From contig JAZDMG010000007.1 of assembly GCA_043801165.1 (NCBI GenBank), positions 70,155-134,154 of the forward strand: a stretch of 64,000 bases of DNA. The letters are read 5' to 3'. The notes under the pieces were generated by a model that saw only the letters and a list, made by a program, of their open reading frames with translations, searched no databases and was not told where the DNA came from. Below, one piece after another: positions 1,645 to 52,383 of this stretch (position 1 is its first letter; each line of letters starts with the position of its first letter). This DNA comes from an archaeon (GTDB lineage Archaea; Nanobdellota; Nanobdellia; Woesearchaeales; SM23-78). The translations under genes were made by a program, and so were the position numbers.

Positions 1645-1691
1645 GGGTCAGAGAGCATACTTTTAGACTAATAAGAAAAAGAGGTAATAAG

Positions 1692-9024: not shown

Positions 9025-9076
9025 AGTTCAATACCAAACATATTCCGTGCATTCAAGCTGATTCAATCATCTCAAC

Positions 9077-10786: not shown

Positions 10787-10816
10787 TCCTAACGCCGAAC
10801 CTTAATCGAATCCGAA

Positions 10817-29768: not shown

Positions 29769-30422
29769 CTAATCTGTCTTCGCCTCCTCACTAGTCTTGA
29801 TTCTCACTAGGTTTGAAGGATCGTAAAGCGCATAGAATCTTGCAGTTGAGGAAGCACTAATCATTCGCTTGGCCTCGCTCTGAGATTTAACATTGAATAG
29901 AATCGTTTTTGAAGTGCCGTCTCGCGCACGAATAAAGCTCTTCTTCAGTTCCCGCTTGAGATCAGGGTTCTCAGACACTATAAACATAGAGATTTCATCC
30001 GAATCTAGCTGGTTCAGGTTAATGAATATTGAATCTATAACCTTTATATGCTCATCTAATGACCAAAAGGCCTTCTCAAGGAAATAGTGAAGCTGGGGCT
30101 TGTCCAGGAACCATATCTTCAAAATCACCTTATTATACTCGCTCAGTTGAAGAAGCTTTTTCTCTACAAAATCACTGGCGCTGGTAATCAAGAATGACTG
30201 GTTCCCAACAAGAGAGTAGAGCAGCCTTGGCTGCCCTTTGTCTCTGTTGGAGATTCTTTTACATTGAACAAGTCCGGCCATCTCTAGAAGACGCAGTTGT
30301 TGGCTGATGTTTGCAACTGAGGTACTTGATAGCTTTGCCAACTGTAGCGGTGACTTGCTTCCTGAAGAGAGTATCTTCAGGATGTCCCATTTCGAGGCCG
30401 TAAATAGTGTTTCTTGTTCCAT
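29769..30422 (-). CDS. ArsR-like winged-HTH regulator with ~130-aa C-terminal domain of unknown function
   Basis: N-terminus WDILKILSSGSKSPLQLAKLSSTSVANISQQLRLLEMAGLVQCKR...RLLYSL has the ArsR/SmtB-type wHTH pattern. Lies 42 nt upstream of A4 on the same strand. Confidence 0.7.
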   Translation of the reverse strand: MEQETLFTASKWDILKILSSGSKSPLQLAKLSSTSVANISQQLRLLEMAGLVQCKRISNRDKGQPRLLYSLVGNQSFLITSASDFVEKKLLQLSEYNKVILKIWFLDKPQLHYFLEKAFWSLDEHIKVIDSIFINLNQLDSDEISMFIVSENPDLKRELKKSFIRARDGTSKTILFNVKSQSEAKRMISASSTARFYALYDPSNLVRIKTSEEAKTD

Positions 30423-30678: not shown

Positions 30679-31431
30679 TCAACCCAGCTCAGCGTAGAAG
30701 AAGTAGGTTGTTGATATCTCACGCGGATCATCCGGAACAATAAACTGGAAATCATACACCCTTGTGTCAAAACCAACCTTCTTATTCTCTAATAACGTAA
30801 CAAACACAAGGTTCCTGGTGTCAGACAGCAACACTTCCTGGAATTGGGAAGTCTCGTTAAATGTTTGAGGCGCATCGTTAATATAAGTGGATATTGCATA
30901 ACAAGAGCTATTCTGAATGCTACCGACGCCACCGATAACAAATGACTTGTGAATCTTTTGCCTAAAGGTACTGTTAATGCTGTCATCGCTCAAAGAGGAT
31001 ATGTTGAGATAATTCTCCTCAGAGATTATCTGGCTGCCATTGGCACAACCCAATGAAGAGAAATTAATCGAATTATTCCTTGAGACATACACCTCTCCCT
31101 GAATCGAAGTCAGAGACCAATCGTATATGGACCTGTTACTGGAATCATCCAATGTAATCCTGCCCGTAACATTTCCTACATATGCCTTCCATTTACTCGT
31201 CTGAGATGTAACATTCAAACGGAGTGTCGTGAATGACCCTCCTTCCGCTGCATGTGAATCAGCAGGCCTAACGCTGGCATTTTCTGTGGTGCCGTATATT
31301 ATTGACACTCCCTGAGGGATGGCAATGGTTTCCACGGACATGAGCAGGAGAATAACAAGTATCAGGATTACTATTATCTTAGGCGTGATCCAGCCTATTC
31401 TACATCTTTTAACACAATCTATTTTTGCCAT
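30679..31431 (-). CDS. Secreted protein, paralog family A (A5)
   Basis: Long hydrophobic signal/anchor. Motifs WKAYVGNVTG, IYDW, GCANG, NSTF, FQEVLLSD and YDFQFIVPD, with C-terminal YFFYAELG. The start overlaps the stop of the upstream 2xHTH gene by 13 nt. Confidence 0.85.
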   Translation of the reverse strand: MAKIDCVKRCRIGWITPKIIVILILVILLLMSVETIAIPQGVSIIYGTTENASVRPADSHAAEGGSFTTLRLNVTSQTSKWKAYVGNVTGRITLDDSSNRSIYDWSLTSIQGEVYVSRNNSINFSSLGCANGSQIISEENYLNISSLSDDSINSTFRQKIHKSFVIGGVGSIQNSSCYAISTYINDAPQTFNETSQFQEVLLSDTRNLVFVTLLENKKVGFDTRVYDFQFIVPDDPREISTTYFFYAELG

Positions 31432-31934
31432 TTTTCAACTTTATTCTTGAACCTAGCGTGCACAGTCCAAACAGTCCGCTGGTCCCTCCCAATCATTCTC
31501 GCAATATCAGCATAGGTCAGGTTTGATTCTCTCAGAAACGACACAAGCGATTCAAGAATACTCAATTGCGAATTTTTAAATGCACTCAGAGGTATTGTAA
31601 GGCTGGTGTTTGCCAAAACGAGTGGCTTCTTGTTCTTCACCGCCGCATATGTACTCCAGATTGTCCTGACATCTCGATCAAGTAGATGGGCTATTTGCCT
31701 GTTTTGAAGTCCTTTGACCTCCTTCAAGTATTTAACTACCACTTGGAGTGGAGCTAGATTACTTTGAAATATTGAGATTGGAAGATAGAGCTCGTTCTCA
31801 TATTTTATAGTTAAATAAGAAACAGAAGGCAATTCCGACATGGTGCCTTCTTGCTCGAAGTTGGATTCGCCCAAATCTGCTTGCAGACCGTAGTCTAACA
31901 TATCGCGACTTACAAAAAAGTACTGTTTGGACAT
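31419..31934 (-). CDS. Small protein with two sigma-70-region-4/LuxR-like HTH repeats
   Basis: Internal duplication: LQVVVKYLKEVKGLQNRQIAHLLDRDVRTIWSTYAAVKNK and LESLVSFLRESNLTYADIARMIGRDQRTVWTVHARFKNK. TTTATAAA on the minus strand lies ~25 nt upstream of the ATG (leaderless-type spacing). Confidence 0.7.
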   Translation of the reverse strand: MSKQYFFVSRDMLDYGLQADLGESNFEQEGTMSELPSVSYLTIKYENELYLPISIFQSNLAPLQVVVKYLKEVKGLQNRQIAHLLDRDVRTIWSTYAAVKNKKPLVLANTSLTIPLSAFKNSQLSILESLVSFLRESNLTYADIARMIGRDQRTVWTVHARFKNKVEKWQK

Positions 31935-33996: not shown

Positions 33997-34416
33997 TTAC
34001 TTTTGTTTGAACATTAGCGGCCTGGGTGGTTTCCTGTATTCCTGCAACCACATTAGACCGATTCGCATCATGTTCTTGTTGAACTTTTCGCTGAGTTTGT
34101 AGGTCTTCTTGTACATGTCGTAATCAATCAAGCCCATAGTCTTCATTGGAGTGAGTATCCTGTCGTAAAATTGTCTCTTATTGTATGAAATCTTGACCTT
34201 CTTCTTTATTCCTAATCTTTCATCTGAAACAACCTCAACATCGATTCCGTCATGTAGTTGTGTCGCAAACATCGACATTTCTGTCTTCCCGATCTCACCT
34301 TGCTTAAGTTTCATCTCTTCGATGAGCATTTTTCCAACAATAACTTGTTGTTTTGTTGCGAAGATGATCTCGTATATGTTCTCCGGCAGGTTGTACTGAT
34401 CGAATAATATAACCAT
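33997..34416 (-). CDS. Hypothetical small protein, possible wHTH
   Basis: 139 aa. The minus-strand TATA (34439-34446) lies ~25 nt upstream of the ATG. The C-terminal FYDRILTPMKTMGLIDYDMYKKTYKLSEKF resembles a winged-helix recognition helix plus wing. Weak call. Confidence 0.5.
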   Translation of the reverse strand: MVILFDQYNLPENIYEIIFATKQQVIVGKMLIEEMKLKQGEIGKTEMSMFATQLHDGIDVEVVSDERLGIKKKVKISYNKRQFYDRILTPMKTMGLIDYDMYKKTYKLSEKFNKNMMRIGLMWLQEYRKPPRPLMFKQK

Positions 34417-34539: not shown

Positions 34540-34722
34540 ATGGAGTTCAGACGAAAACTTTACACTCGTGGAAGCAGTTTTGAAACAACAATTCCGCGCC
34601 CACTCCTATTCTCAATCGACAAGCAAAAGAAATACGAAGTTGTGTTTGCTTTCGATTCTACTCTTAATAAATGGTTCATCGAAATAAAAGATAGAGAAAC
34701 AGAACATGAACAAGCAGAATAA
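34540..34722 (+). CDS. AbrB/SpoVT-like small DNA-binding protein
   Basis: 60 aa. RKLYTRGSSFETTIPRPLL matches the AbrB/MazE swapped-hairpin pattern (R/K-x-G-x-S-x-x-h-T-I-P-K/R). TTTATAAA at 34510-34517 lies 22 nt upstream of the ATG. Confidence 0.55.
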   Translation: MEFRRKLYTRGSSFETTIPRPLLFSIDKQKKYEVVFAFDSTLNKWFIEIKDRETEHEQAE

Positions 34723-35383
34723 ACAAATTGAGGAAATCGTGACAGTGATATGCGTCTCGCTATTACTGCTCACCACTATGATTGTATTCGAAAAAATGAT
34801 GAATGTTCCATTCGAAAACGTGACTGGAGAAGTGTTAACAACAGTCCGTATCATTGAAACCCGCGTAGCCTACTGCAATTTCACCCTTGAGGAAGGACTT
34901 AATTTAGTCTCTTTTTTCTGCATAAGAAACGGTGCGCACAGAACTGAAGTAATTGAAAACATCACAAACCTAGAGTCTATCTTTGAGTACCAAGAGAATG
35001 CCCCTGACAGATGGAAGAGCTACAATCCTGCACTGCCTTGGTTTGTTGTCCAAGACCTAGAAGTGATGTACCGAACAGAGGGATATTGGATCAGAATGCG
35101 AGCTCAAGAAGATTTTCTCACAGGAGGAGGATTAAGATTGATTAATTACATCAACTTCGTTCCAGGCTGGAATCTGGCAGGTTATCCGACGAACAAGACA
35201 AAGCCTGTCAATGAATCATTTGCATCGATTGAGGGCAATTTCACCGAGGTAAGGGCGTATAACGTATCAACGCAGGTCTTCACGAACTACATTCCCGGTA
35301 TTGGTGGCGGTCTGACTGAAACTAATCCTAATCGCGGTTATTGGATCAACGTGAGCGTGAATGAGGTGTGGGTTGTTGATTAA
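34706..35383 (+). CDS. Membrane-anchored extracytoplasmic protein
   Basis: 225 aa. N-terminal anchor IVTVICVSLLLLTTMIVF. C-terminal GWNLAGYP ... NRGYWINV pattern, common in uncharacterised surface proteins. Overlaps the previous gene by 17 nt, and the next gene starts 2 nt after its stop. Confidence 0.65.
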   Translation: MNKQNKQIEEIVTVICVSLLLLTTMIVFEKMMNVPFENVTGEVLTTVRIIETRVAYCNFTLEEGLNLVSFFCIRNGAHRTEVIENITNLESIFEYQENAPDRWKSYNPALPWFVVQDLEVMYRTEGYWIRMRAQEDFLTGGGLRLINYINFVPGWNLAGYPTNKTKPVNESFASIEGNFTEVRAYNVSTQVFTNYIPGIGGGLTETNPNRGYWINVSVNEVWVVD

Positions 35384-35384
35384 G

Positions 35385-37289
35385 ATGGGTCAAGTTCGGA
35401 AAAGAGAGAACTCTGTTCTGGAAATATTCTTACCAATAGTTCTATGCCTGGTTATAGCGTTAATATCACTTGAAATAGTCATAGCACTCCCTCCTTTGCC
35501 TACTGAGTTCTACGGCAGAATCCGTGATTATAACAGCAACGCTACGCCAGGCGAGACAATTTATGCTTATGATAGCAGCGGCACTCTGTGCGGCTCTTTT
35601 ACCATTGTAAATACAGGATTCTATGGATCCCTAACCTGCCTAGGTGATGACCCCGAATCCAATTCTGATGAAGGCGCTGTCCCGAACGAAAACATAACCT
35701 TCAGATATAGAGGAGGGTATACCACTACATCAGGAGATGTCATCTGGGCGTTAGGTGTTTTCAAATATGTAAACCTGACCTATCCTGTGGTTTTCTGCGG
35801 TGACGCATTCTGTGATGCTGAATTTGAAAACAATTTTGTCTGTCCTTTTGATTGCCCACTTTACAATGCTTCCCAGAATATCACAATAAATGGGACTATG
35901 AATATCACCTCAAATGAGACTAACGCTTCTGCTGGAGGAGGAACAGGAACAGGTACAGGCGCAGGAGGCGGAGGGGGATCACAACCAAAGCAGATTAACA
36001 GAGAAACACCGGCTGGACTCCAAGGGCCTACTATCAATGCATCAGGAATGGAGGGTTATGGCCTGGAATGTAAAGAGTCCTGGAGCTGTTCTAATTGGTC
36101 AGTTTGCAGAATCAATGGGTACCATGACAGAATCTGCACTGATAGTAATAGATGCGGAAGCTTTGAAGAGAAGCCTGCTGAAGTCCAAAAATGCATCTAT
36201 ACTCCTACGTGTTCTGACGGGGTCAGGAATGGGCTTGAGGATGGCATTGACTGCGGGGGTCTTTGCCCCCCTTGTGTTGGCTGCTTTGATGCAATCCAGA
36301 ATTGTCACGACGGAAAATGCGAAGATGATATTGATTGTGGGGGACCTTGTCCTCCTTGCCCAACTTGCTTTGATGGCATGAGGAACTGCCATGAAGGATT
36401 GTGCGAAGAGGGTGTCGACTGTGGGGGACCATGTGATGCCAAATGCCCTGAAGTTGAGCTGCCAAGGCCTATCTTTGTCTGCAAGAAGGATGTCAATCCG
36501 TTCTCAAATGGCAGCATTCTGTTCTTCATAGTAATACTTTTGGTCATTCTTGGGAATATAACCTATTCTCAGCATAAGATCAAAGAATTGAGGAAAAACA
36601 AGGATCTTAAAGACATTCAACGCATCAAGGGTATCTTCTCAACCAGGAGGAAGATGTATCTTTTCATATTGATAACGGTGTTAATCGCTGTAATCCTTTA
36701 TTTGTATTACTATTTCTTTGTCATGTGCGAGACAGATTACAAGTTCATTTGGTGGCTGCTGCTCCTATTGTTAGCAACTCCTATAATAATCCATGAAGTA
36801 ATGAGATATCTTGAGTACAGCGAAAGCAAAAAGCTCAAGAAATTCGAAGACCTATTGAGCATGCATTACAAACAGATAGATTCACTCATAAAGATTGAGA
36901 ACGAGAATCTTGAGGAAATGGAGCAGGAATTATCAGCTCAGCTTAACATAGTATTGGATAGCCTGCGAGGCAATTCCAGTGATGAGTGCGTCTCGCTTTT
37001 GCGAGAGATATATGGGCTGTTGGATTCACTTTATCTCAAATACAAGAATCGTGAAAGTCCTTTTGAACAGGAGAAACTCCTTTGCGAAGACATATACCGC
37101 TTAATTGAAAATAAGAAGTACAGCGCATCAATAGAAGCAAATCCTACTATTAAAGGCATAGTTGACAAGCTCAGGATTCTGTACCTGCAATATGAGGAAA
37201 AGCAGGGGCTTTATGACGAGCTTGACAAAGTAGACGCATCAAGGAAGGAGCTTGGGTTAGAGTTAAACCACAGCGGCGAAAAGAAATAA
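35385..37289 (+). CDS. Cys-repeat surface protein with 3 TM segments and cytoplasmic coiled-coil tail
   Basis: The ATG at 35385 comes right after the upstream TAA (the track start at 35361 overlaps that gene). Signal anchor, Gly-rich linker (AGGGTGTGTGAGGGGGS), CKESWSCSNWSVC motif, three tandem C.DG.(R)N..E.G(I/V)DCGG.C..C repeats, TM segments, then ~190 aa of charged helical sequence. Confidence 0.8.
   Translation: MGQVRKRENSVLEIFLPIVLCLVIALISLEIVIALPPLPTEFYGRIRDYNSNATPGETIYAYDSSGTLCGSFTIVNTGFYGSLTCLGDDPESNSDEGAVPNENITFRYRGGYTTTSGDVIWALGVFKYVNLTYPVVFCGDAFCDAEFENNFVCPFDCPLYNASQNITINGTMNITSNETNASAGGGTGTGTGAGGGGGSQPKQINRETPAGLQGPTINASGMEGYGLECKESWSCSNWSVCRINGYHDRICTDSNRCGSFEEKPAEVQKCIYTPTCSDGVRNGLEDGIDCGGLCPPCVGCFDAIQNCHDGKCEDDIDCGGPCPPCPTCFDGMRNCHEGLCEEGVDCGGPCDAKCPEVELPRPIFVCKKDVNPFSNGSILFFIVILLVILGNITYSQHKIKELRKNKDLKDIQRIKGIFSTRRKMYLFILITVLIAVILYLYYYFFVMCETDYKFIWWLLLLLLATPIIIHEVMRYLEYSESKKLKKFEDLLSMHYKQIDSLIKIENENLEEMEQELSAQLNIVLDSLRGNSSDECVSLLREIYGLLDSLYLKYKNRESPFEQEKLLCEDIYRLIENKKYSASIEANPTIKGIVDKLRILYLQYEEKQGLYDELDKVDASRKELGLELNHSGEKK
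36210..36452 (+). repeat. Three tandem Cys-rich repeats C.DG.(R)N..E.G(I/V)DCGG.C..C
   Basis: CSDGVRNGLEDGIDCGGLCPPC / CFDAIQNCHDGKCEDDIDCGGPCPPC / CFDGMRNCHEGLCEEGVDCGGPCDAKC, read directly from the translation. Confidence 0.85.
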
Positions 37290-37308: not shown

Positions 37309-38262
37309 CTACGGAGCTTCAGCTGAGAACACTACGGTTCCATTGCATACACCGAATGGGTTCATGGTCTCATTCACATAAATTCTCCAGTATGTTGTGT
37401 TTATCACTTGGTTGAGATCATCAATCTGCTGGGAGACAAGCAATCCGGCTATGTGTACTCTTGAACTTGTGATTGGAGTCATCGCGCCATAGGCTGTCGC
37501 AGAGCTTATCGAGTATCTCTCGTTTGGCAGTGTCAGGTTCCTTACTTCACAAATCATAGCATAGTTTGCGCCGGTTGTCGCGTTTTCTCCGCCGTATCCG
37601 TAGACACTGACGTTTATATTCATGTTCCCGAAGTTAGTCACGTTGGCTTGGGTAGGATCGACTAAGTCTCCTTCTCCGACAGCCAGGTCCCCGAAGTTTA
37701 TGACTGGGGTGACGTTAAGAGCATAAAGCGCTGATATCGTTGCGTTTCCTGTTCCATTGACAACAAAATGCCTGCTTGTGTTGTATGTTGAATTATCTCG
37801 CACTATCGCTGTCATTCTCCAAGTTCCGTTGTTTGCATAGTAAAGGACATCATAAACGCAGGTCCAGTTAGTATACCATCCGCTGGTTGTGTTCTCTGTG
37901 CAACTTTCATTGGTGTAGTGCGTGTTGTTGTCATCTGGATTTGAGGAATAGTTTTGGAAGTAGTAGAATGTGCCGTTCACTGTCCATATGGTGTTGCCTC
38001 CATTATAGTCCAGAATCTGGACAAGGCAAGAGACCGTCTGTGTCAAACCAGCAGTTAATGTTATTGATGATGTGACATTGATGCATGTTACATTGTAGAC
38101 TATTGGCATTGCGTCTGTGATGTTTACCGTGGTTCTGACGCTCACGTTCTTGTAGTTAGGGCCAGGACCCCAACTTATTACAGCAGGAAGAAGATTATAT
38201 ACATAAATGAGGAGAACTGTTGTCAATAGCAGTGTTAAAAGCAATCTGTTCTTAGTTTTCAT
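37309..38262 (-). CDS. Secreted protein, paralog family B (B2)
   Basis: Signal peptide then SWGPGPNYKNVSV. Shares NPDDNNTHYT, LYYANNGTWR, ANVTNFGNMNINVSVYGYGGEN, NERYS, NTTYWR and PFGVCNGTVVFSAEAP with B1. Has its own BRE/TATA at 38333-38347. Confidence 0.85.
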   Translation of the reverse strand: MKTKNRLLLTLLLTTVLLIYVYNLLPAVISWGPGPNYKNVSVRTTVNITDAMPIVYNVTCINVTSSITLTAGLTQTVSCLVQILDYNGGNTIWTVNGTFYYFQNYSSNPDDNNTHYTNESCTENTTSGWYTNWTCVYDVLYYANNGTWRMTAIVRDNSTYNTSRHFVVNGTGNATISALYALNVTPVINFGDLAVGEGDLVDPTQANVTNFGNMNINVSVYGYGGENATTGANYAMICEVRNLTLPNERYSISSATAYGAMTPITSSRVHIAGLLVSQQIDDLNQVINTTYWRIYVNETMNPFGVCNGTVVFSAEAP

Positions 38263-41702: not shown

Positions 41703-42935
41703 ATGGTTGATTTGATTGGCAGAGCATTCAGGCTCAGCGTTGTTTCGCTAGTATTCTTAGTGCTACTATTACTGGCTACGCTACCTGCTGAGGCCACAGT
41801 CATAGGCGCCAACAAGGCAGTGGCTGAGTTCAAGAATGTCCTTAAGAACGGCTATGCCCAGGAGCTGGTGACCCTGACAACAGACACTGACTTCAATCTC
41901 AGCGTAAACTATGAGTCTGAGGGCGATGTGGCTGGTTGGATCCGTTTTGAGCCAGTTCTCTCGCCTTTCTTCATAAGCAGGGATAATCCTTACACCATCG
42001 CCATGATAATAGAGCCTCCTGGAAATGTCAGGAATGATCGCTATACTGGTTCGGTTCGCTTCATAACTGGCTCTCTTGCCGGTCCTGAAGGTCAGTTCGG
42101 AACTGCTGTTCGCGCAGCCATCAATATAAGGATCGGCGTAGACATCACAGGCCAGGAAATTGTCAGCTGTCAGGCATCTGCATTCAGGATAGATGATGTC
42201 GAAGAGGGCTATCCCCTAGAGTTCTATGGCTCGTTCAGCAATAGCGGGAACGTGCGCATCAGGCCAGAGTTCATCCTGGAGTTCTGGAACCAGGACCAGA
42301 CCAAGCTCGTGGATACCTTGAGGTTCACAGCCAACAAGAGCATACTGCCCACGGTCCAGGAGCGCATCTTCGGCGTGATTAACCATAATCTCAGCCTAGG
42401 CCAGTACTGGGTCAAGATCAAGACTCCGCTCTGCGGCGATAGCGGCTATGGTTTTTTAACCATGAGCGTCATCGAAAGAGGCGGTGTGAGCGACCAGGGA
42501 GAGCTGGTCAACATAGAGAATAATCCCTGGGCCAAGGTCGGCGAGATAGTGCCCATAGATGCTGTCTTCAAGAACACAGGAACAAGAGTTGAGAGCGCCA
42601 AGTTCAAGGGCACCATCAGCTCGGGCAAGGATATATTCAAGATAATCGATACTGATCCTTTGGATGTTCTGCCTGGCCAAGCAGTCAAGATAAGGACCTA
42701 TTTCAATCCGGTCCAGGAGGGCCAGTACATGATAACAGGCCGTGTGCTCTACAACAAGAAGCTGACTTTTGAGAAAAGCTCTGTCCTGAATGTCAACCCT
42801 TCAGGCAAGCCAACTTCTGCAGGCTGGGGGATTGGCCCGACAGTCCTGATAATCATGCTGCTTGTGCTTATGGTGATAGTGCTGCTGATACTCATCAAGA
42901 GAAAGAAACATTCGTCTAATATTCGTAGATTGTAG
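41703..42935 (+). CDS. Secreted protein with C-terminal TM anchor
   Basis: Signal peptide (LVFLVLLLLATLPAEA), beta-rich body, C-terminal TM VLIIMLLVLMVIVLLILI plus KRKKHSSNIRRL. TTTATAAA at 41641-41648 and AAGGGTGGG before the ATG. Immediately upstream of giant 2 on the same strand. Confidence 0.8.
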   Translation: MVDLIGRAFRLSVVSLVFLVLLLLATLPAEATVIGANKAVAEFKNVLKNGYAQELVTLTTDTDFNLSVNYESEGDVAGWIRFEPVLSPFFISRDNPYTIAMIIEPPGNVRNDRYTGSVRFITGSLAGPEGQFGTAVRAAINIRIGVDITGQEIVSCQASAFRIDDVEEGYPLEFYGSFSNSGNVRIRPEFILEFWNQDQTKLVDTLRFTANKSILPTVQERIFGVINHNLSLGQYWVKIKTPLCGDSGYGFLTMSVIERGGVSDQGELVNIENNPWAKVGEIVPIDAVFKNTGTRVESAKFKGTISSGKDIFKIIDTDPLDVLPGQAVKIRTYFNPVQEGQYMITGRVLYNKKLTFEKSSVLNVNPSGKPTSAGWGIGPTVLIIMLLVLMVIVLLILIKRKKHSSNIRRL

Positions 42936-43005: not shown

Positions 43006-46000
43006 ATGCGTAATTGCCTTTTGATAAATAGATTTATGATTATTCTAGCCTTAATCATGCTGCAGTTGGTGTCCGTGGCTATCGGCGCAGTATCAAGTCA
43101 TGATCCGATAACACTTGATAAGCAAAGCTATCTCATCGAGGATACTGCTGTCCTGAGCATCAACATCAATCCTTCTCAATATGACATTTATGAGCTAAGC
43201 ATCACTGATTCAAGTGGCAAGTACACCTTTAGAGGCACTTTTAATCCGGAAATGTTCTTCTACCCTACAGAGGAAGGCATCTATACCGCAGCCCTGGTTG
43301 AACGATCAACCGGGGCTATTTATTATTCTAAGTCATTCAATGTCAGCATTGATGAGAGCAAAGCCAGACGGCGGGTGATCGAGAACGGGATTGCCAGGGG
43401 GGCTGACAGCGTAATCAATGCGACGAATCTCTCTTCACCCGAAAGCAAGAATCAAAGCCATGGCCAGAATCAGGCATTGCCTATTCTTCCGGCAATCAGC
43501 CAGGACCAGGCGTATATCTCTCTGGAGAAGGATAGGTTTTTCCTCGAGGAAAAGATCAGAGTCATCTTAAAGAGCGATGTGGTCAGTAGACAGGATTCAT
43601 ACCATTTGTTCTACTCGTCCAATGGAGAGACCAAGCGTTACATGGGTGATTTGTCATTCATCGAGTTCACACCTTCAGGCATAGGGACGCATGAGCTCCT
43701 GCTGACAGATTCTGATGATAAGCTATTATATTCCAAGAGTTTCAGCGTCACAGCTACAGAAGATGATGAGGACTTCACCAATCCGGATACGAACCGAATA
43801 CTGATACGAGCTCATGGCGGAGCACGTCAAGAGAGCAAGATCATCATCCATGATGAATTTGGCAGGGAAATCAATCTCAGCAGCATCCCTAACAAAAAGT
43901 TATCTGCTTCTTCAGGTTTGACCAACAGATTCAGAGCTGAGGTAATGCCTAATCACGGTCTGAAGAGCATAATATTCAATGGCCTTGCTTTGGGCAATTC
44001 GAGTGATTTTGATCTTGGCTTTGAGGAAATTCCCCCTGAGAACATCCGTGTCAAAGACAGGAGAGCCATCAAATCTTTTGCTATCGATGCCTCTAAACTT
44101 AATTTCATCTCAGGGGCAGCCGTCGGCAGGGCTGTCGGGACCGAGCTTTGGAAGTGCAAGAACTGGTCTTTTGAATCTCAGCAATGCGACGGCACCTGGG
44201 TCAAGGTAATGGATCTCGTGCCTGGCAGGGAATATCAGATAGCGATAACGCCAGATGACCCTGGCTACACAGAGACAGGAGTCGCTGCGGTCAACTCTCT
44301 GAAGCCGATCTATCACCCTGGAGAGGTCGCTGTCCTGTGGATGGTCGTCCTGGATACGAAAGGCCACCTAGTCACAGGCGCAGACATCTCTCTCAATGTT
44401 ACTACGCCATTGAATAATACTATGATGCTGACAACCGCCAGCGGAGAAATAAATGAGATCATGAAAGGAGTCTATGGAGCGAACTTCTCAGATACGTATT
44501 CTGAGGGGAACTACACGCTCTTGATGAGTGCGAAATCATCTATGGTCGACAGCTCATTGTATTCAAATTTCGAGGTCAAGGAGGAATATGATTTCGACAT
44601 AATCAGGAATGCTCCGATAACAACAGACCCATTCACAGGCCCATTTGAATCTTCTCTCACGATAAGACCAGAAGATGTCAACAGCGAGATAGAAAATTAT
44701 AATTTCACAGAGATACTTCCGTTAGACTTCGATATAGTGTCGGCGCCCAATGCCCTGATCTCGCATGATGAAACAAAAAGATTCCTCTTCTGGAGCAATC
44801 TGAGTGGAGAATCAGTCGTCAGTTACATTGCCCAGCCTCCAAAGATTACGCCAAATCTTTTCATGCTGGGAAGATCGTTCATCGACTATGTCAGCGACGG
44901 AATCATCAGGCGGTTCATCGAGGCCAGGTTCTGGTTCCTGGCTATAGATCCGCTGCAAAACCTCTTCTTCGATGATTTCGAGTCTTGGGGATGCAGGACA
45001 ACAGGGGTACCTGCAGCAGGAAACAACTGCTCATACAGCGCAAATTGGGGAGAATTCACCAACTGCTACACCTTACCAGCAGCCAGATTCTGCACAACGG
45101 ACGATGGGCAGGAAGGAAACCACGCAACATACGCCATCCAGATGACCAACTGGAGGATGGACGCAAGCGCAGGGCTATGGTTCTCGCTAGATCCAAGCAT
45201 ATACGACGACATAAACGTGAACGGATACATCTACGCAGGAAGCCTAGACAACAACGCAGAATACTGCATGATATGGGCAAGAGACTCAAACTCAATAGCA
45301 GCAATTTACAACTGCACGAACGGAGCAGCATGCGACGGAACAACACAGACACCGAATATATCAAACTATGTGAAATACGACGTAAATCTGAGCGGCCTGA
45401 GCGGGATAGACCTAAGCGAAAGCAACATATCAGTGCACATAGGAGGAGCGCACTCAAACACAGCAGACTACTGCTTCTTCGACAGGATAAACATAACAGC
45501 AATAGCATATCCGCCGGATGTCACCAATCTCACCTATCCTGCCAATGGTACCACTGTCAATCTGACAACCTTCGACCTTAATTTCACTGTCAACGCCTCA
45601 AGAGACCTGGTCCTGCCCAACTGCACGCTATGGACCGACCTGAATGGGAGCTGGGCGGCAAACATCACAATATACAATGTCAGCAGGAACAACATAACCA
45701 ACATATCAGTGAACCCGATAATAGACGGGGCATACAACTGGAGCATAATATGCTACACGAGAACTGGCTTATATGATTGGTACGACAACAATTTCACATT
45801 CCTTGTCAATGCAAGGCCGCCAATCAAAAATGTCAGTAGCGTAGACGGCGACGTGAGCGCCCCCTGGAACACCACCAACAGGAACCCTGTGATAAACCTG
45901 AGCCTCAACAAGAACGGAAACTGCAGGTTCAGCTTCAGCAGCGAGTCATATGAAGATATGAGTGATGATTATGATTGTTCAGGGGATGGCACGGCATCAA

Positions 46001-49000
46001 TCAGCTGCACATATACAGGGGCTCAGCTAGACATAGCAACATATTCTTTATATTTTGCATGCAATGACACCTATGGCCACGCAGACAACGTCTCGACAAA
46101 CCTAAGGGTGGACATCGATGTGCTTTGTGACTCCCATTCAGACTGCCTGAGCAACGAATACTGCGATTACACCCAAAACTGCCACTCAGACGAACTGCCA
46201 GGATATCCATGCAACACACAAGCTCACACAGGACTTGCATGGAATGACGTATGTGGTAATGGAGCCGACAGGTACTGCGTCAACGACTCAACATACAGCT
46301 ACACAGGATGGTACTGCACAGGATCAGCAACAGACTGCGTATACAACGACCAAGGAAAAAGCTATGCGCTGACCTATAATCTTTGCATAGGCGGCACCAA
46401 CGACTATAAGACCTGTGATGCAGGAAACCAATGGGATGCGACGGTGGATTGCGCAGACCAATATGACCCATTCAACCAAAGCGCAACAACGCACAGCGGA
46501 GAATATTGCGCGTATTACCCTGACCAGCAGTCCTGCAGCAACGGGACTGCCGGAGGATGCTCAGGGATCTGGACTGGATGCGATTATCACATCTACAATC
46601 AGGCTATACAGACCTGTGGCAGCTCGATGGAGGACTGCGACCTTGGCTGTGGGGCAGGATGCGACAGCACGAACAGCACCGAGCCGACAATCATCTCAGG
46701 CACCTGCTATTATGATAGGAGCTGCAATGGCATATGCGCATGGAGCCAGAGCCAGGAAGAAGCTCCGCTATCCTGCATAAATGATGATGATGGAGGAGCA
46801 TGTGTATACAGCAATAGGACAGACCCAAGCATCCAAGGCATATGCTATTGGAACACGACATGCGAAAATACATTAGGAGCAACGCAAAACAACAACAGCA
46901 TACTCCGAGCAGACTACTGCGACTTCTGCATCTTATCTGGAAACAACAGCGGAGAATACTCGCCAGCTCCGAATACGAGCTGCAGCTCCGGTTGCGAAAA
47001 CAGCGGAACAATATACTATGATACAGGATCAACACCACTTAACCGATCAGATGACTGCAGCAATGGAATGACTATCATACTGAGCGACACACTTGCAACA
47101 GGAGACATATGGAACGGAAGCGCACCAGCAGTATGCGACGACACAGAATGCACAGATGACTGCGGAACATTATTCGGCGCATGCAACATCACCACGGGAA
47201 ACTGCGAATGCACAGACATGGACAACCCGATCCTGATTATTATATGGCCGGAGGATGGGATGTGGACCAACAATGCGAGCGTGAGATTCAGGTATAACAT
47301 CACAGATATAAGCTCAGGGATAAAGAACTGCTCGCTGATAGTGGATGGTGATATCGACCAGACCAATTCGACAATCGACGAGAGCCTCAATGAGCAGGAG
47401 TTCATGCAATCATTCGCCAACGGGACTATACTGTGGAGCATCAGCTGTTTCGACGATAGCACACAATATAATAATAACCGGTCAGACAACGGCATCCTGG
47501 GCATCGATACTGTGGCGCCGCCAGTATTATTCCCTAGCATCAACGGAAGCGATTTCAACATCAACCAGAAGATATGCCTTAACATAACAGCGAACGATAC
47601 CTACGCAGGGATAAAAGATATCATCGCGGAGATAAAACCTCCGGGCCAGCCAGCAGAAAATATAAGCTTGTATGACGATGCGATGACAAGCTGTGATGGA
47701 GTGAACGGTGACGGAGTGTTCTCTGCGTCTTACACATTGATATTCGCAGGTGTATATGATTGGATCACAGCCTATGCCATAGACTATGCTGACAACCAGA
47801 ACATCACAGACCCGGGATTTGACTGGAATGTCAGCGCTGGCGGCATACTGAACCTCACGATGCCGCTGCCATCGGGTGACATCAAGATAAATGAATCAGA
47901 ATCCAATAATTATTTCCTGCAGGAATGCAACGTCACCTGCTCAGACCAGGGAAATGCCTGTGACGATGTCATCCTTAGTGCAGAGTTCAATGATGGCTCA
48001 TCCTTCCTAGCCATCAACACTTCATCGACAGGATTGGTAAACGACCAGGATGATTATGCCTGCGGCAATCTTGCCATCGGCCAGAGCTGCGCCGCAACAT
48101 TCAACATAACCTCGGGAGCTGATTCTGGGAACAACACCTGGCCTGTGAGATGCAGGGCAGATGGCAGCACCAGCGCAACTACGTTCTCAGGAGCTAGAAA
48201 CATCACCATAAACAATCATCCTGACGTCAACATCAGCCATCCCCAGAACAGTGACTGGCTCAGTGGGGCGATGAATATCAACTCAAGCCTCAGCTTCGAC
48301 AGCGACGGCACAATCTCAAATTACCTGTTTGAATACGATGACAAAGCAGACTTCGACAGCCCCAGCACCATATGCGACGACGCAAGCAGCAGCTGCACAT
48401 GGAACACGACCACACAGGACCAGTGCCAGAACAACAGCATGGACTGCTATCTCAGGGTGACTGTGACAGACAATGATGGACTGAGCAACAGCACATACAT
48501 AACCATCGGGTTTGATACTGAGGGTCCTGTGACTAGCATAACCAATCCTGGGAACTTCGCTGCGACCGCATCTGATTTGATGACGCTTGAGGCGACTGCA
48601 ACAGATGACCAGATCGGAATAGTCAACCAGCTATCCTTTGAATACCGCCGGAACAACACAGACTCATGGAAGCCTGCCTGCAATGATACCACTGAGCCAT
48701 TCTCATGCAATTGGAACCTGGTCGCATTGGTTGACGACAGCACATATGAAGTGAGGGCCTTCGCGGAAGACTATTTCAACAACACAGGAAACATAGATGC
48801 CATCACCAACATTACCATAGACCGCTCGTCCCCGTTGACAAGCCTGGAGAGCCCCCAGCAGGGATTTGCGACCACAGAGCACAACATCACTTTCTATTAC
48901 AATGTATCTGACGCATTATCAGGCATACTGAACTGCGAGCTCATAATCGATGGGAATGTGGACCAGACCAACTCAAGCGTGCAAGAGGGCATCAGCCAGA

Positions 49001-52000
49001 GCTTCGCAGCCACATTGGTAGAAGGCAGCCATCTCTGGAGTGTAAACTGCACAGACCTGCTAGACAACAGGAACGCCTCTGAAGCAAGGAACATCACCAT
49101 CGATAACTCAGGGCCGACTGTGGTGCTCGATAGGCCTCCTGAGAATGAGAACATCTCTGACTCAGCAAGCTATGTCGTGAACGCCACGGTCACAGACGAG
49201 GGAGCCGGAAACATAAGCATGGTGACCTTTGAATACAGGAAAGGCTCTTCAGGGAACTGGACCTTTGCCTGCAATGATGATAGGCCTCCCCTATTCGACT
49301 GCTCCTGGAACCTTGTGGGGCTAGAGGATGGGGACGACTACGAAGTTATGGTTTGGGCGAACGATACGCTTGGGAACAACGGCACCAATGATACGCACAC
49401 AGGGATAAAGATCGACAATAATCCCCCTAACATCACCGTAATAAGCCCGGGCAACAACACCGTTGACGGAGACGGCGACCTCACTTTCAGCTATATCGTC
49501 AATGACTCAGGATCCGTGGTCTGGAACTGCAGTCTGATATGGAACAACACCATCAACCAGACCAATTCATCCATAATCGAGAACCAGGAGATGTCGTTCA
49601 GCCTGCTCAATATCTCCGACGGCAGGTACAACTGGAGCATCAACTGCACAGACCAGTTCAACCACAAAAGCACAATCGGGAGGATGAACCTCAGCGTCAA
49701 CAGGCAGAACAGGATCTTCATCAATGTCAGCACCGACAAGACGCTCTACCATAAAGGGAACCAGGCTGTCGAGAATGCGACAATCAACACCACCTCGAGA
49801 GATATATTCAACGGTTCTGTCAATGATGTGAACATAACGAATGACCTCATCAAGGTATACAACAGATCAGAGCCAGCAGGACCCTGGTGGAACACCAGCT
49901 GGGCGCAGAGGAAGCCGATCTTCATAAGCAGCAACTCTGCAGTAAACCAGACCAACATCACAGTAACAATCAATGTCACAGGCCTGAATGGCAACATAAC
50001 AAACTGCACCAAGGAGATCAGAGTCGCCAATGCCTACGGGGCGCTCAGCGAAGTCAATGTGATATCTGGAGATAATTCAGATTCCTGCTATATCGGGTTC
50101 AAGGCCAATGTGAGCGCCAATGCAGTAAACCAAAGCAATTATTATGTCTACTACAACAATTCAAACGCCGTCAATCCAGGGTATAATAATTTCGTGAATT
50201 TCAGCTATACGCTCTTCTTTGAGAATTTTGATGGAGCAGGATGGACCCAGATAGCCACGGTCTCCCCATCGACGACCTGTGCCGGAGGCTACGGATCCTT
50301 CACCAGCTGCCTCGCATACGCAACCGATAATGATTTCGCAGCCACCAGCAGTGGAACAGAGATAAGCGGGCTCTACAAGTTCGTGATGGACCAAAGCTAC
50401 CCTTGGGTTGCCAATAGGGGAGTATGGTTCAACACCAGCCCCACGACAGCCTGCGGAGGGAACAGCTGCGATGACATAAGGGTCACAGGATATGCAGCCA
50501 CCGGCTCCGTCGATACCGCCTCTGAATTCTGCAGGGTATGGGCAAGGAACACGACGACAACAGCATATGCGACCATATACGAATGTGTCGGGCCAACCCC
50601 CATATGTGAGTTCGCCAGGACAGATATCGCCCCCGCTGTAGCAGCTAACTATACCTTCTTCAATAAGACGCTTAAATCAGATCTCGGCCTCGGAATAGGG
50701 AATTATATAGCTGTGCACATAGGAGGCAATGGTACAGCTGCTGACGACAACTGTTTCTATGAAGACATCAGGGTGACAGGGATCAGGTACCAGGCTCTCA
50801 ACATCACTGCCGCGAGGATAGGTGACCCGCAGGAATGGATTGTGAGAAACACCAACAGGACAGATTCCAACGGCCTCTGGAGCTTCATCCTCGACATTGC
50901 AGGCATAGGCATTGGAAACTACTCTGCCGCATCATTGGGCCAGAAGACAGGATACGGCGATGCATATAACTTCACATATTTCGAAGTGACCCTTGACAAC
51001 ATAGGCCCGAACATAACTCTCACGAGCCCTGACAATGACACGAAGACAAAGGAGCAGATGGTGCCATTCAACTACATGGTCAACGACAGCCTGAGCGGGA
51101 TAAGCAACTGCTCATTGATCATCGACGGCAAGATAAACGACACAGACTCGTCGGTACAGGAGAGCATACCTAAGTACTTCGGACCGAAAAACATCTCAGA
51201 AGGATGGCATAACTGGAGCGTCAACTGCACCGATGACTACAACAACACAGGAGCTTCAGAGAGGAGGACTATCCTGGTTGACATCACTCCTCCGAACATC
51301 ACCATGGGCAGGCCTACCAACGGAACATGGGTAATAGCCCCTTACCAAGGATTCACCTATCTGGTCAATGCCAGCGCGCAGGATAATTATGGGATGGGCT
51401 TTGTGCAATTCATGTATCGCGTGAACAGCAGCGATTCGTGGAAGGATATCTGCAACGACACAGGAGCGCCTTACCAGTGCATCTGGAATCTCAGCGGGCT
51501 CAACAATGGAGCATACTACGAGGTGCTCGCCTACGCCAATGATAGCGTCGGGAACATAGGCATCAACAGCACCCACTTCAACATAACAGTCCGCACAAAA
51601 GTGATAAACGTGACATATCTGATTGCTGATGACAGCACCGCGATTCCCATCGATCAGATCGACCTGATAGCAGGATCTGTCAGATCAGCCTTCTGCAATC
51701 TCACCATAATATCAGGGGATGACTACACCAGCATAGAAAGCGTCAATGCAACTCTTTATTCTGCGACAACAACACTGGGCGCTGTAGATTCCAATAGGAC
51801 CCATTACACCAATTCAAGCTGCTCATTGGTCAGTGGAGGAGGAGATAGTGCAGATTATTTCTGCTCTTTTGACCTGTTTTACTACGCAATAAATGGTTCT
51901 TGGAGCTGCACAGCGTTCGCGAGAGATAACTATACCGCAAGCAACAGGAGCGACCAGACAACGGTCAACCAGCTATTCGCAATAAACATGACTAGCGATA

Positions 52001-52383
52001 TCATCAACTACAGCAGCCTGCAGCCAAACCAGGTATCGTCAGAAGTCACCATCGACATGGTCAATATAGGGAACATGCCGATGAACATAAGCGTCTTCGG
52101 ATTCGGCGGAGAGAATTACAGCATAGGAAAGAATCTCTCTATGATCTGCAGCATCAACAACATCAGCATAAGCTCTGAGAGATATTCTACATCAAGCATT
52201 AGCTATGACTCAAAGAGCAACCTGAGCTCGACGCCAAGGGATATCGGATTGACAATCCTTCCGACAAACGATACTCTCGGCCCTAATGTCAATACCACCT
52301 ACTGGCAGTTCATGGTGCCTGTGAGTTCGCATAGCCTTGGCCTATGCAACGGCAGCGTCGTCTTCATGGCTCAGTCTCCATGA
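43006..52383 (+). CDS. Giant secreted/surface glycoprotein 2 (3125 aa), paralog of 14727..24224
   Basis: Single 9.4-kb ORF with an N-terminal signal peptide (FMIILALIMLQLVSVAIGA). Same module order as giant 1 through the Ig-like array, with long tracts of nucleotide identity. It differs in the post-DUF2341 module and ends in a family-B domain (...LCNGSVVFMAQSP). No C-terminal TM or sorting tag. Confidence 0.9.
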   Translation: MRNCLLINRFMIILALIMLQLVSVAIGAVSSHDPITLDKQSYLIEDTAVLSININPSQYDIYELSITDSSGKYTFRGTFNPEMFFYPTEEGIYTAALVERSTGAIYYSKSFNVSIDESKARRRVIENGIARGADSVINATNLSSPESKNQSHGQNQALPILPAISQDQAYISLEKDRFFLEEKIRVILKSDVVSRQDSYHLFYSSNGETKRYMGDLSFIEFTPSGIGTHELLLTDSDDKLLYSKSFSVTATEDDEDFTNPDTNRILIRAHGGARQESKIIIHDEFGREINLSSIPNKKLSASSGLTNRFRAEVMPNHGLKSIIFNGLALGNSSDFDLGFEEIPPENIRVKDRRAIKSFAIDASKLNFISGAAVGRAVGTELWKCKNWSFESQQCDGTWVKVMDLVPGREYQIAITPDDPGYTETGVAAVNSLKPIYHPGEVAVLWMVVLDTKGHLVTGADISLNVTTPLNNTMMLTTASGEINEIMKGVYGANFSDTYSEGNYTLLMSAKSSMVDSSLYSNFEVKEEYDFDIIRNAPITTDPFTGPFESSLTIRPEDVNSEIENYNFTEILPLDFDIVSAPNALISHDETKRFLFWSNLSGESVVSYIAQPPKITPNLFMLGRSFIDYVSDGIIRRFIEARFWFLAIDPLQNLFFDDFESWGCRTTGVPAAGNNCSYSANWGEFTNCYTLPAARFCTTDDGQEGNHATYAIQMTNWRMDASAGLWFSLDPSIYDDINVNGYIYAGSLDNNAEYCMIWARDSNSIAAIYNCTNGAACDGTTQTPNISNYVKYDVNLSGLSGIDLSESNISVHIGGAHSNTADYCFFDRINITAIAYPPDVTNLTYPANGTTVNLTTFDLNFTVNASRDLVLPNCTLWTDLNGSWAANITIYNVSRNNITNISVNPIIDGAYNWSIICYTRTGLYDWYDNNFTFLVNARPPIKNVSSVDGDVSAPWNTTNRNPVINLSLNKNGNCRFSFSSESYEDMSDDYDCSGDGTASISCTYTGAQLDIATYSLYFACNDTYGHADNVSTNLRVDIDVLCDSHSDCLSNEYCDYTQNCHSDELPGYPCNTQAHTGLAWNDVCGNGADRYCVNDSTYSYTGWYCTGSATDCVYNDQGKSYALTYNLCIGGTNDYKTCDAGNQWDATVDCADQYDPFNQSATTHSGEYCAYYPDQQSCSNGTAGGCSGIWTGCDYHIYNQAIQTCGSSMEDCDLGCGAGCDSTNSTEPTIISGTCYYDRSCNGICAWSQSQEEAPLSCINDDDGGACVYSNRTDPSIQGICYWNTTCENTLGATQNNNSILRADYCDFCILSGNNSGEYSPAPNTSCSSGCENSGTIYYDTGSTPLNRSDDCSNGMTIILSDTLATGDIWNGSAPAVCDDTECTDDCGTLFGACNITTGNCECTDMDNPILIIIWPEDGMWTNNASVRFRYNITDISSGIKNCSLIVDGDIDQTNSTIDESLNEQEFMQSFANGTILWSISCFDDSTQYNNNRSDNGILGIDTVAPPVLFPSINGSDFNINQKICLNITANDTYAGIKDIIAEIKPPGQPAENISLYDDAMTSCDGVNGDGVFSASYTLIFAGVYDWITAYAIDYADNQNITDPGFDWNVSAGGILNLTMPLPSGDIKINESESNNYFLQECNVTCSDQGNACDDVILSAEFNDGSSFLAINTSSTGLVNDQDDYACGNLAIGQSCAATFNITSGADSGNNTWPVRCRADGSTSATTFSGARNITINNHPDVNISHPQNSDWLSGAMNINSSLSFDSDGTISNYLFEYDDKADFDSPSTICDDASSSCTWNTTTQDQCQNNSMDCYLRVTVTDNDGLSNSTYITIGFDTEGPVTSITNPGNFAATASDLMTLEATATDDQIGIVNQLSFEYRRNNTDSWKPACNDTTEPFSCNWNLVALVDDSTYEVRAFAEDYFNNTGNIDAITNITIDRSSPLTSLESPQQGFATTEHNITFYYNVSDALSGILNCELIIDGNVDQTNSSVQEGISQSFAATLVEGSHLWSVNCTDLLDNRNASEARNITIDNSGPTVVLDRPPENENISDSASYVVNATVTDEGAGNISMVTFEYRKGSSGNWTFACNDDRPPLFDCSWNLVGLEDGDDYEVMVWANDTLGNNGTNDTHTGIKIDNNPPNITVISPGNNTVDGDGDLTFSYIVNDSGSVVWNCSLIWNNTINQTNSSIIENQEMSFSLLNISDGRYNWSINCTDQFNHKSTIGRMNLSVNRQNRIFINVSTDKTLYHKGNQAVENATINTTSRDIFNGSVNDVNITNDLIKVYNRSEPAGPWWNTSWAQRKPIFISSNSAVNQTNITVTINVTGLNGNITNCTKEIRVANAYGALSEVNVISGDNSDSCYIGFKANVSANAVNQSNYYVYYNNSNAVNPGYNNFVNFSYTLFFENFDGAGWTQIATVSPSTTCAGGYGSFTSCLAYATDNDFAATSSGTEISGLYKFVMDQSYPWVANRGVWFNTSPTTACGGNSCDDIRVTGYAATGSVDTASEFCRVWARNTTTTAYATIYECVGPTPICEFARTDIAPAVAANYTFFNKTLKSDLGLGIGNYIAVHIGGNGTAADDNCFYEDIRVTGIRYQALNITAARIGDPQEWIVRNTNRTDSNGLWSFILDIAGIGIGNYSAASLGQKTGYGDAYNFTYFEVTLDNIGPNITLTSPDNDTKTKEQMVPFNYMVNDSLSGISNCSLIIDGKINDTDSSVQESIPKYFGPKNISEGWHNWSVNCTDDYNNTGASERRTILVDITPPNITMGRPTNGTWVIAPYQGFTYLVNASAQDNYGMGFVQFMYRVNSSDSWKDICNDTGAPYQCIWNLSGLNNGAYYEVLAYANDSVGNIGINSTHFNITVRTKVINVTYLIADDSTAIPIDQIDLIAGSVRSAFCNLTIISGDDYTSIESVNATLYSATTTLGAVDSNRTHYTNSSCSLVSGGGDSADYFCSFDLFYYAINGSWSCTAFARDNYTASNRSDQTTVNQLFAINMTSDIINYSSLQPNQVSSEVTIDMVNIGNMPMNISVFGFGGENYSIGKNLSMICSINNISISSERYSTSSISYDSKSNLSSTPRDIGLTILPTNDTLGPNVNTTYWQFMVPVSSHSLGLCNGSVVFMAQSP
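44931..45512 (+). other. Giant 2: conserved jelly-roll-like module (counterpart of 16826-17410)
   Basis: Runs from FLAIDPLQNLFFDDFESWG to ADYCFFDRINITAIAYPP. Includes 75-nt (44931-45005) and 85-nt (45415-45499) tracts identical to giant 1 by my reading. Confidence 0.5.
46126..47211 (+). other. Giant 2: Cys-rich module
   Basis: Runs from CDSHSDCLSNEYCDYTQNCHSDE to CGTLFGACNITTGNCEC. Collinear with giant 1 18024-19103 and highly similar at nucleotide level in places (e.g. 46296-46370 vs 18196-18270). Confidence 0.8.
47231..49700 (+). repeat. Giant 2: tandem array of alternating Ig-like modules (approximate bounds)
   Basis: Same two module types as giant 1, e.g. FEYRRNNTDSWKPACND..EPFSCNWNLVALVDDSTYEVRAFAEDYFNNTG and FEYRKGSSGNWTFACNDDRPPLFDCSWNLVGLEDGDDYEVMVWANDTLGNNG. 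Confidence 0.7.
49885..50165 (+). other. Giant 2: DUF2341-like segment
   Basis: Opens WWNTSWAQRKPIFISSNS and ends NYYVYYNNSNA. Same caveat as for giant 1. Confidence 0.45.
50212..50793 (+). other. Giant 2: second jelly-roll-like module, absent from giant 1
   Basis: LFFENFDGAGW ... CRVWARNTT ... AVHIGGNGTAADDNCFYEDIRVTGIRYQ parallels the first module (FFDDFESWG ... CAIWARDSN ... SVHIGGAHSNTADYCFFDRINITG). Confidence 0.55.
51580..52380 (+). other. Giant 2: C-terminal family-B domain (267 aa)
   Basis: Collinear with B1/B2 over the whole domain: NRTHYTNSSCS / DNNTHYTTGNCS; FYYAINGSWSC / WYYANNGSWRV; VNIGNMPMNISVFGFGGEN / VTNFGNLPINVTVYGFGGDN; SSERYS / SNERYS; NTTYWQF / NSTYWRL; LGLCNGSVVFMAQSP / FGICNGTVVFSATGA. 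Confidence 0.85.

Follow-up and report, generated by a model that had tools for sequence, protein, structure and literature searches.

Tafi, a heteromeric strand-donation fibre of archaea, includes a tip adhesin, an adapter, a major subunit and a terminator anchored in the membrane (PMC11821415). In other archaea, S-layer and non-S-layer surface proteins have novel C-terminal anchoring domains in common (10.1101/2024.05.28.596244). Here we analyzed a stretch of 64,000 nucleotides (the window) from contig JAZDMG010000007.1 of a Woesearchaeales archaeon, which encodes two giant secreted proteins, giant 1 and giant 2, and free-standing members of two families of small secreted proteins, A and B. 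The subject is the C-terminal end of giant 2 (positions 51580..52380), which an earlier description made from the letters of the window only (the sequence-only reading) had taken for a fused copy of the B domain. Woesearchaeota and related archaea have small genomes, are abundant and uncultivated, and are thought to be attached to other cells; to our knowledge almost nothing is known about their surfaces.

The find proved to be wider than the flagged interval, consisting of an undescribed, lineage-wide C-terminal module and a conserved surface gene system. Free subunits bearing an N-terminal arm, arm-less cargo proteins and a C-terminally anchored protein are encoded together at this locus, a set that recalls tafi.

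The C-terminal domain of giant 2

Giant 2 was compared with the two free-standing B proteins of the window, B1 and B2. The features concerned are listed below.

43006..52383, plus strand: giant 2, a secreted, sequon-rich surface protein of 3,125 amino acids (aa) with 162 N-x-S/T sites (GenBank MFH0869585.1, 'Ig-like domain-containing protein')
51292..51516, plus strand: Big_7 Ig-like domain of giant 2 (aa 2763-2837; Pfam PF17957, E=7.7e-10)
51532..52377, plus strand: profile envelope of the giant 2 B domain (aa 2843-3124)
51580..52380, plus strand: B domain of giant 2 (aa 2859-3125), analyzed by BLASTP, profile and shuffle test
27180..28136, minus strand: B1, 318 aa, with a hydrophobic leader, an arm and two beta-sandwiches; within the A operon, 14 bp after A3
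27996..28019, minus strand: SWGPGPNY of B1 (aa 40-47), the start of the arm
37309..38262, minus strand: B2, a free-standing B protein of 317 aa in the neighbourhood of giant 2
38152..38175, minus strand: SWGPGPNY of B2 (aa 30-37)

The interval 51580..52380 is precisely the final 267 codons of the giant 2 open reading frame (ORF). In BLASTP searches run with composition-based statistics, giant 2 aa 2859-3125 matched B2 aa 39-317 with 35% identity over 280 columns (E=4e-43), and giant 2 aa 2885-3122 matched B1 with 35% identity over 241 columns (E=3e-40). B1 and B2 were 57% identical to each other (E=1e-109). A profile built from 49 free-standing family members matched giant 2 aa 2843-3124 (E=3e-67), covering profile positions 22-307 of 308, and no further match to it was detected anywhere in giant 1 or giant 2. 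Both the pairwise alignments and the hidden Markov model (HMM) run therefore upheld the claims that giant 2 ends in a full-length family-B domain and that this end is collinear with B1 and B2.

The sequence-only reading had allowed that the resemblance might be one of N/S/T-rich composition. Smith-Waterman scores for the giant 2 B domain were 410 and 426, while 300 shuffles gave 46 +/- 8 (z=43); 16 other 267-aa windows of both giants, equally rich in N, S and T, scored at most 77. The similarity is therefore positional and not compositional, and a compositional artefact was ruled out. At the level of sequence, the C-terminus of giant 2 was confirmed as a true copy of the B domain.

The giant 2 domain also has the marks of the family. 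The five conserved Cys align, as do the motifs DDNNTHYTN, YYANNG(T/S)W, NxGN...GxGG, NERY, NxTYW and CNGTVxF, and the match stops at aa 3124 of 3125. The shared strings reported earlier are present, with the corrections that B2 reads NGTW and NFGNMNINVSVYGYGGEN, and that 'LCNG' is found in giant 2 only while CNGxVVF is common to all.

The Big_7 domain of giant 2 (aa 2763-2837 plus the last strand) leads straight into the B core and occupies the place of the leader and SWGPGPNY start of the free-standing proteins. Behind the hydrophobic leader, B1 and B2 both have SWGPGPNY in identical form; giant 2 lacks it. The fused B domain is thus entered directly from an Ig-like module, as had been proposed.

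Leader, arm and predicted structure of the free-standing B proteins

The N-terminal arm of the free-standing B proteins has the consensus SWGPxxNYxNVSVRTTVNVT. Among 166 free-standing members, the arm (2.51 bits per column) equalled the core (2.50) in conservation. Residues V/T/V/V stand at alternate positions in it, with two conserved N-x-S/T sequons in between; provided that the arm forms a strand, these sequons would lie on the face opposite to V/T/V/V.

An AlphaFold2 model of B1 was calculated from the 49-sequence alignment, with a mean predicted local distance difference test score (pLDDT) of 89.4 and a predicted template modelling score (pTM) of 0.73. The model contains a leader helix (aa 13-39), a coil without assigned structure (aa 40-63; pLDDT about 50 for aa 41-50 and about 81 for aa 51-60) and two beta-sandwiches of 7 and 8 strands (aa ~64-180 and ~186-317). 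Foldseek matches of B in the PDB included FimH (E=5e-5) and CsuE (E=4.6e-4), beside RbmA and transglutaminase barrels, and the viral library BFVD likewise gave generic tandem beta-sandwich matches. A specific fold relative for B was rejected in both libraries, the template modelling scores (TM-scores) being below about 0.35. No Pfam, NCBIfam or PHROGs family matched B, its profile matched no PDB sequence, and a description of the family was not found in a full-text literature search. B is an undescribed two-beta-sandwich domain. Membership of A or B in a TasA/camelysin-like or other known pilin family was also rejected, with nothing matched in Pfam, NCBIfam, PHROGs or PDB sequences.

The leader was judged from the alignment by eye. 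It consists of a hydrophobic stretch followed by xVxS ahead of WGP. No conserved G/A was present at -1 after basic residues, so a type IV pilin-like (class III) leader was discarded. The sequence fits cleavage by signal peptidase I, which presumably removes the leader.

The B family across the lineage

A profile search over 1.84 billion cluster representatives detected 2,201 B relatives at E<=1e-3, 436 of them at E<=1e-30. The 150 best-scoring representatives ranged from 214 to 5,014 aa. For the counts of position and arm, 271 members with sequences were re-scanned with the B profile. The match stopped 0-10 residues from the C-terminus in all of them (271/271) and at most 4 residues from it in 255/271. 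Free-standing proteins were the commonest form (190/271); the other 81 of the 271 were fused, in proteins of 325-5,014 aa. No membrane anchor was detected after the B domain in the B proteins examined.

The fused cargo was unrelated between proteins. It included a right-handed beta-helix, seven Big_13 repeats, MG2 plus Big_7, a common class of about 590 aa and a propeller-like region. Most fused copies start at profile position 43-51, past most of the arm. A recognisable (W/Y)G(P/S)xxNY...TVNVT segment was retained in three fused copies only, P0095, P0121 and P0128. In two of these, weak matches to the Nup98-type autopeptidase S59, below the Pfam cut-off, were observed in the cargo about 140-165 aa upstream of B (P0128 aa 721-770 and P0121 aa 1815-1862). 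Such matches could hint at self-cleavage freeing the arm, and they could also be due to chance.

B1 has an identical counterpart in an archaeal metagenome-assembled genome, and its named relatives belong to Candidatus Woesearchaeota or Nanoarchaeota. A genome scan with one genome per species gave 232 relatives. The best 80 of these 232 were mostly from Woesearchaeota-, Nanoarchaeota-, Nanoarchaeia- or Pacearchaeota-type or unassigned archaeal metagenome-assembled genomes; about 19 of the 80 carried the label 'uncultured Methanosarcinales' and two the label 'Euryarchaeota SM23-78', which we suspect to be mislabelling. The B family appears to be restricted to Woesearchaeota/Pacearchaeota-type DPANN archaea.

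In a rough neighbour-joining tree of the B core, the giant 2 domain grouped with those of other giants with a Big_7 junction, namely P0198 (3,094 aa), P0200 (2,877 aa), P0178, P0203, P0193, P0211 and P0165. B1 and B2 fell into two separate free-standing subclades, apart from giant 2, and the three arm-retaining fusions nested within the free-standing clade. The fusion in giant 2 is therefore older than the split between these lineages, and B was fused on more than one occasion. The sequence-only reading had proposed such a phylogeny to date the fusion; the tree does not give an island-specific event that could be dated against B1 and B2. B is a lineage-wide module, always C-terminal and fused many times.

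Giant 1 and the A family

The second giant and the five free-standing A proteins are as follows.

14727..24224, plus strand: giant 1, 3,165 aa, of which about 2,300 aa are collinear with giant 2
23298..24221, plus strand: terminal C-type module of giant 1 (CARDB, aa 2858-2971, plus A-like core, aa 2980-3146)
25345..26109, minus strand: A1, free-standing secreted A-family protein
26227..27024, minus strand: A2, free-standing secreted A-family protein
28151..28918, minus strand: A3, free-standing secreted A-family protein, modelled with pLDDT 82
28986..29726, minus strand: A4, free-standing secreted A-family protein
30679..31431, minus strand: A5, free-standing secreted A-family protein

The N-terminal architecture of about 2,300 aa that the giants had been said to share was recovered, G1 63-2359 and G2 14-2302 being collinear at 51% identity. 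The ends do differ on this common body, as had been claimed, but they are not related by a simple swap of tails: past aa ~2,300 the giants have about 300 aa without a collinear counterpart, then a common stretch of about 170 aa and then unlike ends. Giant 2 aa 2403-2725 (50212..51180, plus strand) repeats the segment that is aligned to G1 711-1048. This second copy resembles the aa 650-1000 region of both giants (FFDDFESWG.../FFENFDGAGW...), and giant 1 has an unrelated insert of about 340 aa where giant 2 carries its repeat copy.

A1 to A5 are paralogues of about 250 aa, and other genomes have a one-to-one orthologue of each. Within the family, the first ~40 mature residues are conserved (PxG motif) and poorly placed in the model. 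A had no Pfam, NCBIfam, PHROGs or PDB-sequence match, and no fold match to the A3 model was detected in the PDB (Foldseek best E=1.8).

The end of giant 1 had been called A-like. Its CARDB domain was recognized by Pfam (E=1e-10), and the C-family profile matched giant 1 aa 2861-3165 (E=2.6e-101). The A-like region was detected neither by BLASTP nor by a profile of the five local A paralogues, so the homology between giant 1 and A is remote and concerns the core only; a 53-sequence A profile gave a 21-bit match at giant 1 aa 2980-3146. Homologues of the last 191 aa of giant 1 included free-standing proteins of about 322 aa composed of a leader, CARDB and the terminal domain. By hhalign, this C-type family matched the A family with 98.3% probability (E=1.1e-14, 178 columns), a match that takes in the A core and not the N-terminal region of A, and it matched B with a probability of 9%. 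The contrast of an A-like with a B end therefore stood for B, and for A at profile level only, the end of giant 1 being CARDB plus an A-like core. The related claim that each terminal module is mirrored by free-standing genes of the island likewise held for B and, for giant 1, only remotely through its A-like core, no free-standing copy of the full C-type module being present in the window.

Conserved gene neighbourhoods

The following genes accompany the A and B genes and giant 2.

29769..30422, minus strand: ArsR-type helix-turn-helix (HTH) regulator inside the A/B operon, conserved in 35 related loci
31419..31934, minus strand: second HTH protein, at the head of the A/B operon, conserved in 30 related loci
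34706..37289, plus strand: two genes, conserved next to B2-type genes in 26-27 loci, for a 225-aa protein and a Cys-rich 642-aa protein with a membrane helix
38422..41217, minus strand: membrane protein of 931 aa, immediately upstream of B2 and kept beside B in 19 loci
41703..42935, plus strand: protein of 410 aa, made up of a leader, a beta-rich body and, at the C-terminus, a membrane helix and a basic tail

The order HTH - A5 - ArsR - A4 - A3 - B1 - A2 - A1 recurs in another Woesearchaeota genome, with each A one-to-one orthologous and with a coiled-coil protein and convergent giants after A1. The two conserved HTH genes suggest that the subunit genes have regulators of their own. Conservation extends to the B2 side, as 413 aa - 950 aa - B2 - 617 aa - 225 aa - 139 aa beside a giant of 2,877 aa, the length of P0200 (B domain aa 2627-2877).

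Seventy-seven loci were scanned with the A, B and C profiles. A free B gene directly after A genes was found in 45 of them, a nearby giant with a C-type end in eight, and a free B gene adjoining a co-oriented cargo-B gene in nine (gap of 4-300 bp in 7/9). The order B, cargo-B, B occurred at two loci. At one locus (L071), a free B with leader and arm is followed 4 bp on by a gene encoding a leader, propeller-like cargo and an arm-less B.

The gene for the 410-aa protein is co-oriented with giant 2, 70 bp upstream of it. Homologues were present in 25 loci, and in 19 of these they lie 57-362 bp downstream of a B-ending gene, again on the same strand. This protein is the most consistent neighbour of B-ending genes and, in contrast to A, B and the giants, is poor in sequons. 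It had no known-family match and no PDB sequence match. A B- or A-like terminator (compare TafF, TafA-like) was considered and rejected, as hhalign gave only 15%, 28% and 9%. The 410-aa protein is a candidate membrane dock for B.

Other genes of the window were noted in passing. A 139-aa protein without a leader (33997..34416, minus strand) is 85-90% identical across genomes, while neighbouring genes are only about 50% identical; such conservation is unusually strong for a surface-protein island. A large sensory cluster adjoins giant 1 (4038..14486, minus strand), with a 1,002-aa multi-PAS plus GAF protein, a HAMP protein, a 1,360-aa HisKA/HATPase kinase and two family-3 solute-binding proteins, and it is unexpectedly rich for a small-genome DPANN archaeon. 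The overlapping ORFs 1117..1644 and 1443..2240 (plus strand) both match a KaiC-type ATPase family and a third KaiC-like ORF lies at 2536..3075; a frameshift in one gene may account for them, or they may be paralogues.

A possible role in assembly or docking

The surface proteins that carry B at their very end are otherwise very different, which makes a common assembly or docking piece the most likely role of the domain. We therefore read B as the constant C-terminal assembly/docking module of secreted DPANN surface proteins, to which we assign a probability of roughly 0.45, slightly short of even. The B domains are homologous, they are built into their proteins in the same strictly C-terminal position, most fusions have lost the arm, and the neighbourhoods are conserved. 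From its conservation, its alternating residues and its loss in most fusions, the arm may behave like a contact segment.

Under the docking reading, giant 2 would be a cargo-bearing member, in which B comes after about 2,860 aa of Ig-like, MG2 and other domains, and B1 and B2 would be cargo-less subunits with an extra N-terminal arm. B domains could bind each other and/or a membrane-anchored protein encoded with them, of the 41703..42935 family. A free subunit might add its arm as an edge strand to a neighbouring B domain. Having no free arm, the fused copy could only receive one; we propose that it would therefore terminate the chain on the outside. Docking would then tether the anchor-less giant with its cargo facing away from the cell, and the tether would be supplied by a membrane protein of the 41703..42935 type. 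Giant 1 may dock in a like manner through CARDB plus its A-like core, matched to the five A subunits.

A larger picture can be drawn, which we find doubtful as a whole: a previously unseen, chaperone-free heteromeric scaffold of Woesearchaeota-type DPANN archaea with six small subunits (A1-A5 and B), into which adhesins of ~3,000-5,000 aa would plug by arm-less subunit domains (A-like in giant 1, B in giant 2), with a single-pass membrane tie, serving as the main apparatus of surface display and host contact.

Several observations weigh against docking by arm exchange. Both sandwiches, of 7 and 8 strands, look complete in the AlphaFold2 model, with no strand evidently missing that the arm could replace, and the conserved arm itself is left as coil. 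Foldseek against the PDB returned only generic tandem-Ig/beta-sandwich matches with TM-scores <=0.35. The cleavage of the leader was judged by eye alone, and P0095, P0121 and P0128 keep the arm segment in spite of being fused. The putative 410-aa partner has no similarity to A, B or C, and its gene does not adjoin B1 in the window. Adjacency of genes, moreover, speaks of co-regulation and not of contact.

Some of the same evidence would agree with B as a pure envelope anchor for a non-B surface component (S-layer, glycan or lipid), similar to SLH or CWB2 and without co-assembly of B domains, the free B proteins being fillers or regulators of occupancy. A constant C-terminal module behind variable cargo, with no membrane anchor after it and well conserved through the lineage, is what an anchor would look like; the invariant acidic/Asn loop DPDDNNTHYTN could bind a ligand or metal, and the anchoring domains shared by S-layer and other surface proteins of other archaea offer a parallel (10.1101/2024.05.28.596244). 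We nevertheless regard it as unlikely. Cargo-less B is the commonest form (190/271) and has one-to-one orthologues in an operon with five small subunits, which one would not expect of a mere anchor; the anchor reading leaves the conserved arm of free B without a role, and B is not similar to any known anchoring module.

B could also be the distal working end, for example a lectin-like head binding a host or substrate, with the giants held by an uncleaved N-terminal signal anchor and B1 and B2 as soluble or tethered heads. The N-terminal hydrophobic stretches of the giants, about 20 residues, are long enough to span a membrane, two-domain adhesins and carbohydrate-binding modules are among the best Foldseek matches, and DPANN archaea, as general episymbionts, need host-binding proteins (PMC11329633). 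A host-recognition head is expected to vary, however, and here it is B that is conserved and the N-terminal regions that are variable. One head would also have to serve beta-helix, MG2, propeller-like and Ig cargo, and the tight linkage to the membrane-anchored partner gene and the A operon would go unexplained; we regard this explanation as quite improbable. We give still less weight to common ancestry without a common function, in which B would be a stable two-Ig cassette that was duplicated and shuffled and the giant 2 copy would be functionally unlinked to B1 and B2. Ig-like cassettes shuffle readily, and the giant 2 domain is only 35% identical to B1 and B2 and belongs to another clade; a freely shuffled cassette, however, would not be terminal in 271/271 members, nor would free copies and the same partner genes be kept adjacent across many genomes.

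Whichever explanation applies, B is a large unannotated family (about 2,200 clusters) that marks the secreted surface proteins of the lineage, and its profile can be used to list the surface-protein repertoire of these genomes. The conserved gene set around B points to a multi-gene surface system in a poorly known archaeal group, and the docking reading supplies a testable idea of how anchor-less proteins of 3,000 aa could be held on a cell.

Comparison with known systems

One module on many paralogues with otherwise unrelated domains is also the arrangement of CWB2 (cell wall proteins of C. difficile), SLH and the C-terminal domains of the type IX secretion system (T9SS). In these constant anchoring modules, as in B, the minimal member is little more than the module itself, and the T9SS domains share the strict terminal position. 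B differs from them in its size of about 260 aa and its two domains, and in having no outer membrane, peptidoglycan or known ligand. None of the CWB2, SLH and T9SS Pfam families matched B; Por_Secre_tail (PF18962) did not match B1, B2 or the giant 2 C-terminus, and the host is archaeal and not diderm.

The tip adhesins of chaperone-usher pili (FimH, PapG, CsuE) carry their cargo N-terminal to a subunit-like C-terminal domain, as the B fusions do. Their end domain lacks the N-terminal extension of the free subunits, as in giant 2 and most fused B proteins, and several distinct small subunits are encoded together in both cases. FimH and CsuE were among the Foldseek matches of B, yet with TM-scores <=0.35 and no sequence similarity. 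Chaperone-usher pilin domains have an incomplete Ig fold lacking its last strand; the two sandwiches of the AlphaFold2 model of B1, with 7 and 8 strands, look complete. The host is a single-membrane archaeon, and the cargo of B proteins reaches about 4,700 aa, unlike that of chaperone-usher adhesins. No PapD-like or usher Pfam match was detected in the island ORFs scanned.

For the chaperone-free strand-donation fibres of archaea and Gram-positive bacteria, namely tafi (TafC/E/A/F), bundling pili, threads, cannulae and TasA, it has been proposed that N-terminal strands link the exported subunits. B had no match to TasA/Peptidase_M73, DUF1102 or relatives in Pfam, NCBIfam or the PDB profile search, and no TasA, bundling-pilin or DUF1102 structure was among the 50 Foldseek matches listed for it. 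Tafi is heteromeric; its tip protein has two domains, and its terminator is anchored in the membrane by the C-terminus (PMC11821415). The tafi tip donates an N-terminal strand; cargo-B proteins have no free arm to donate, so the polarity would be opposite. Under the docking reading, B would resemble chaperone-usher tips and tafi in logic; its membership in either fails on sequence, fold and accessory genes.

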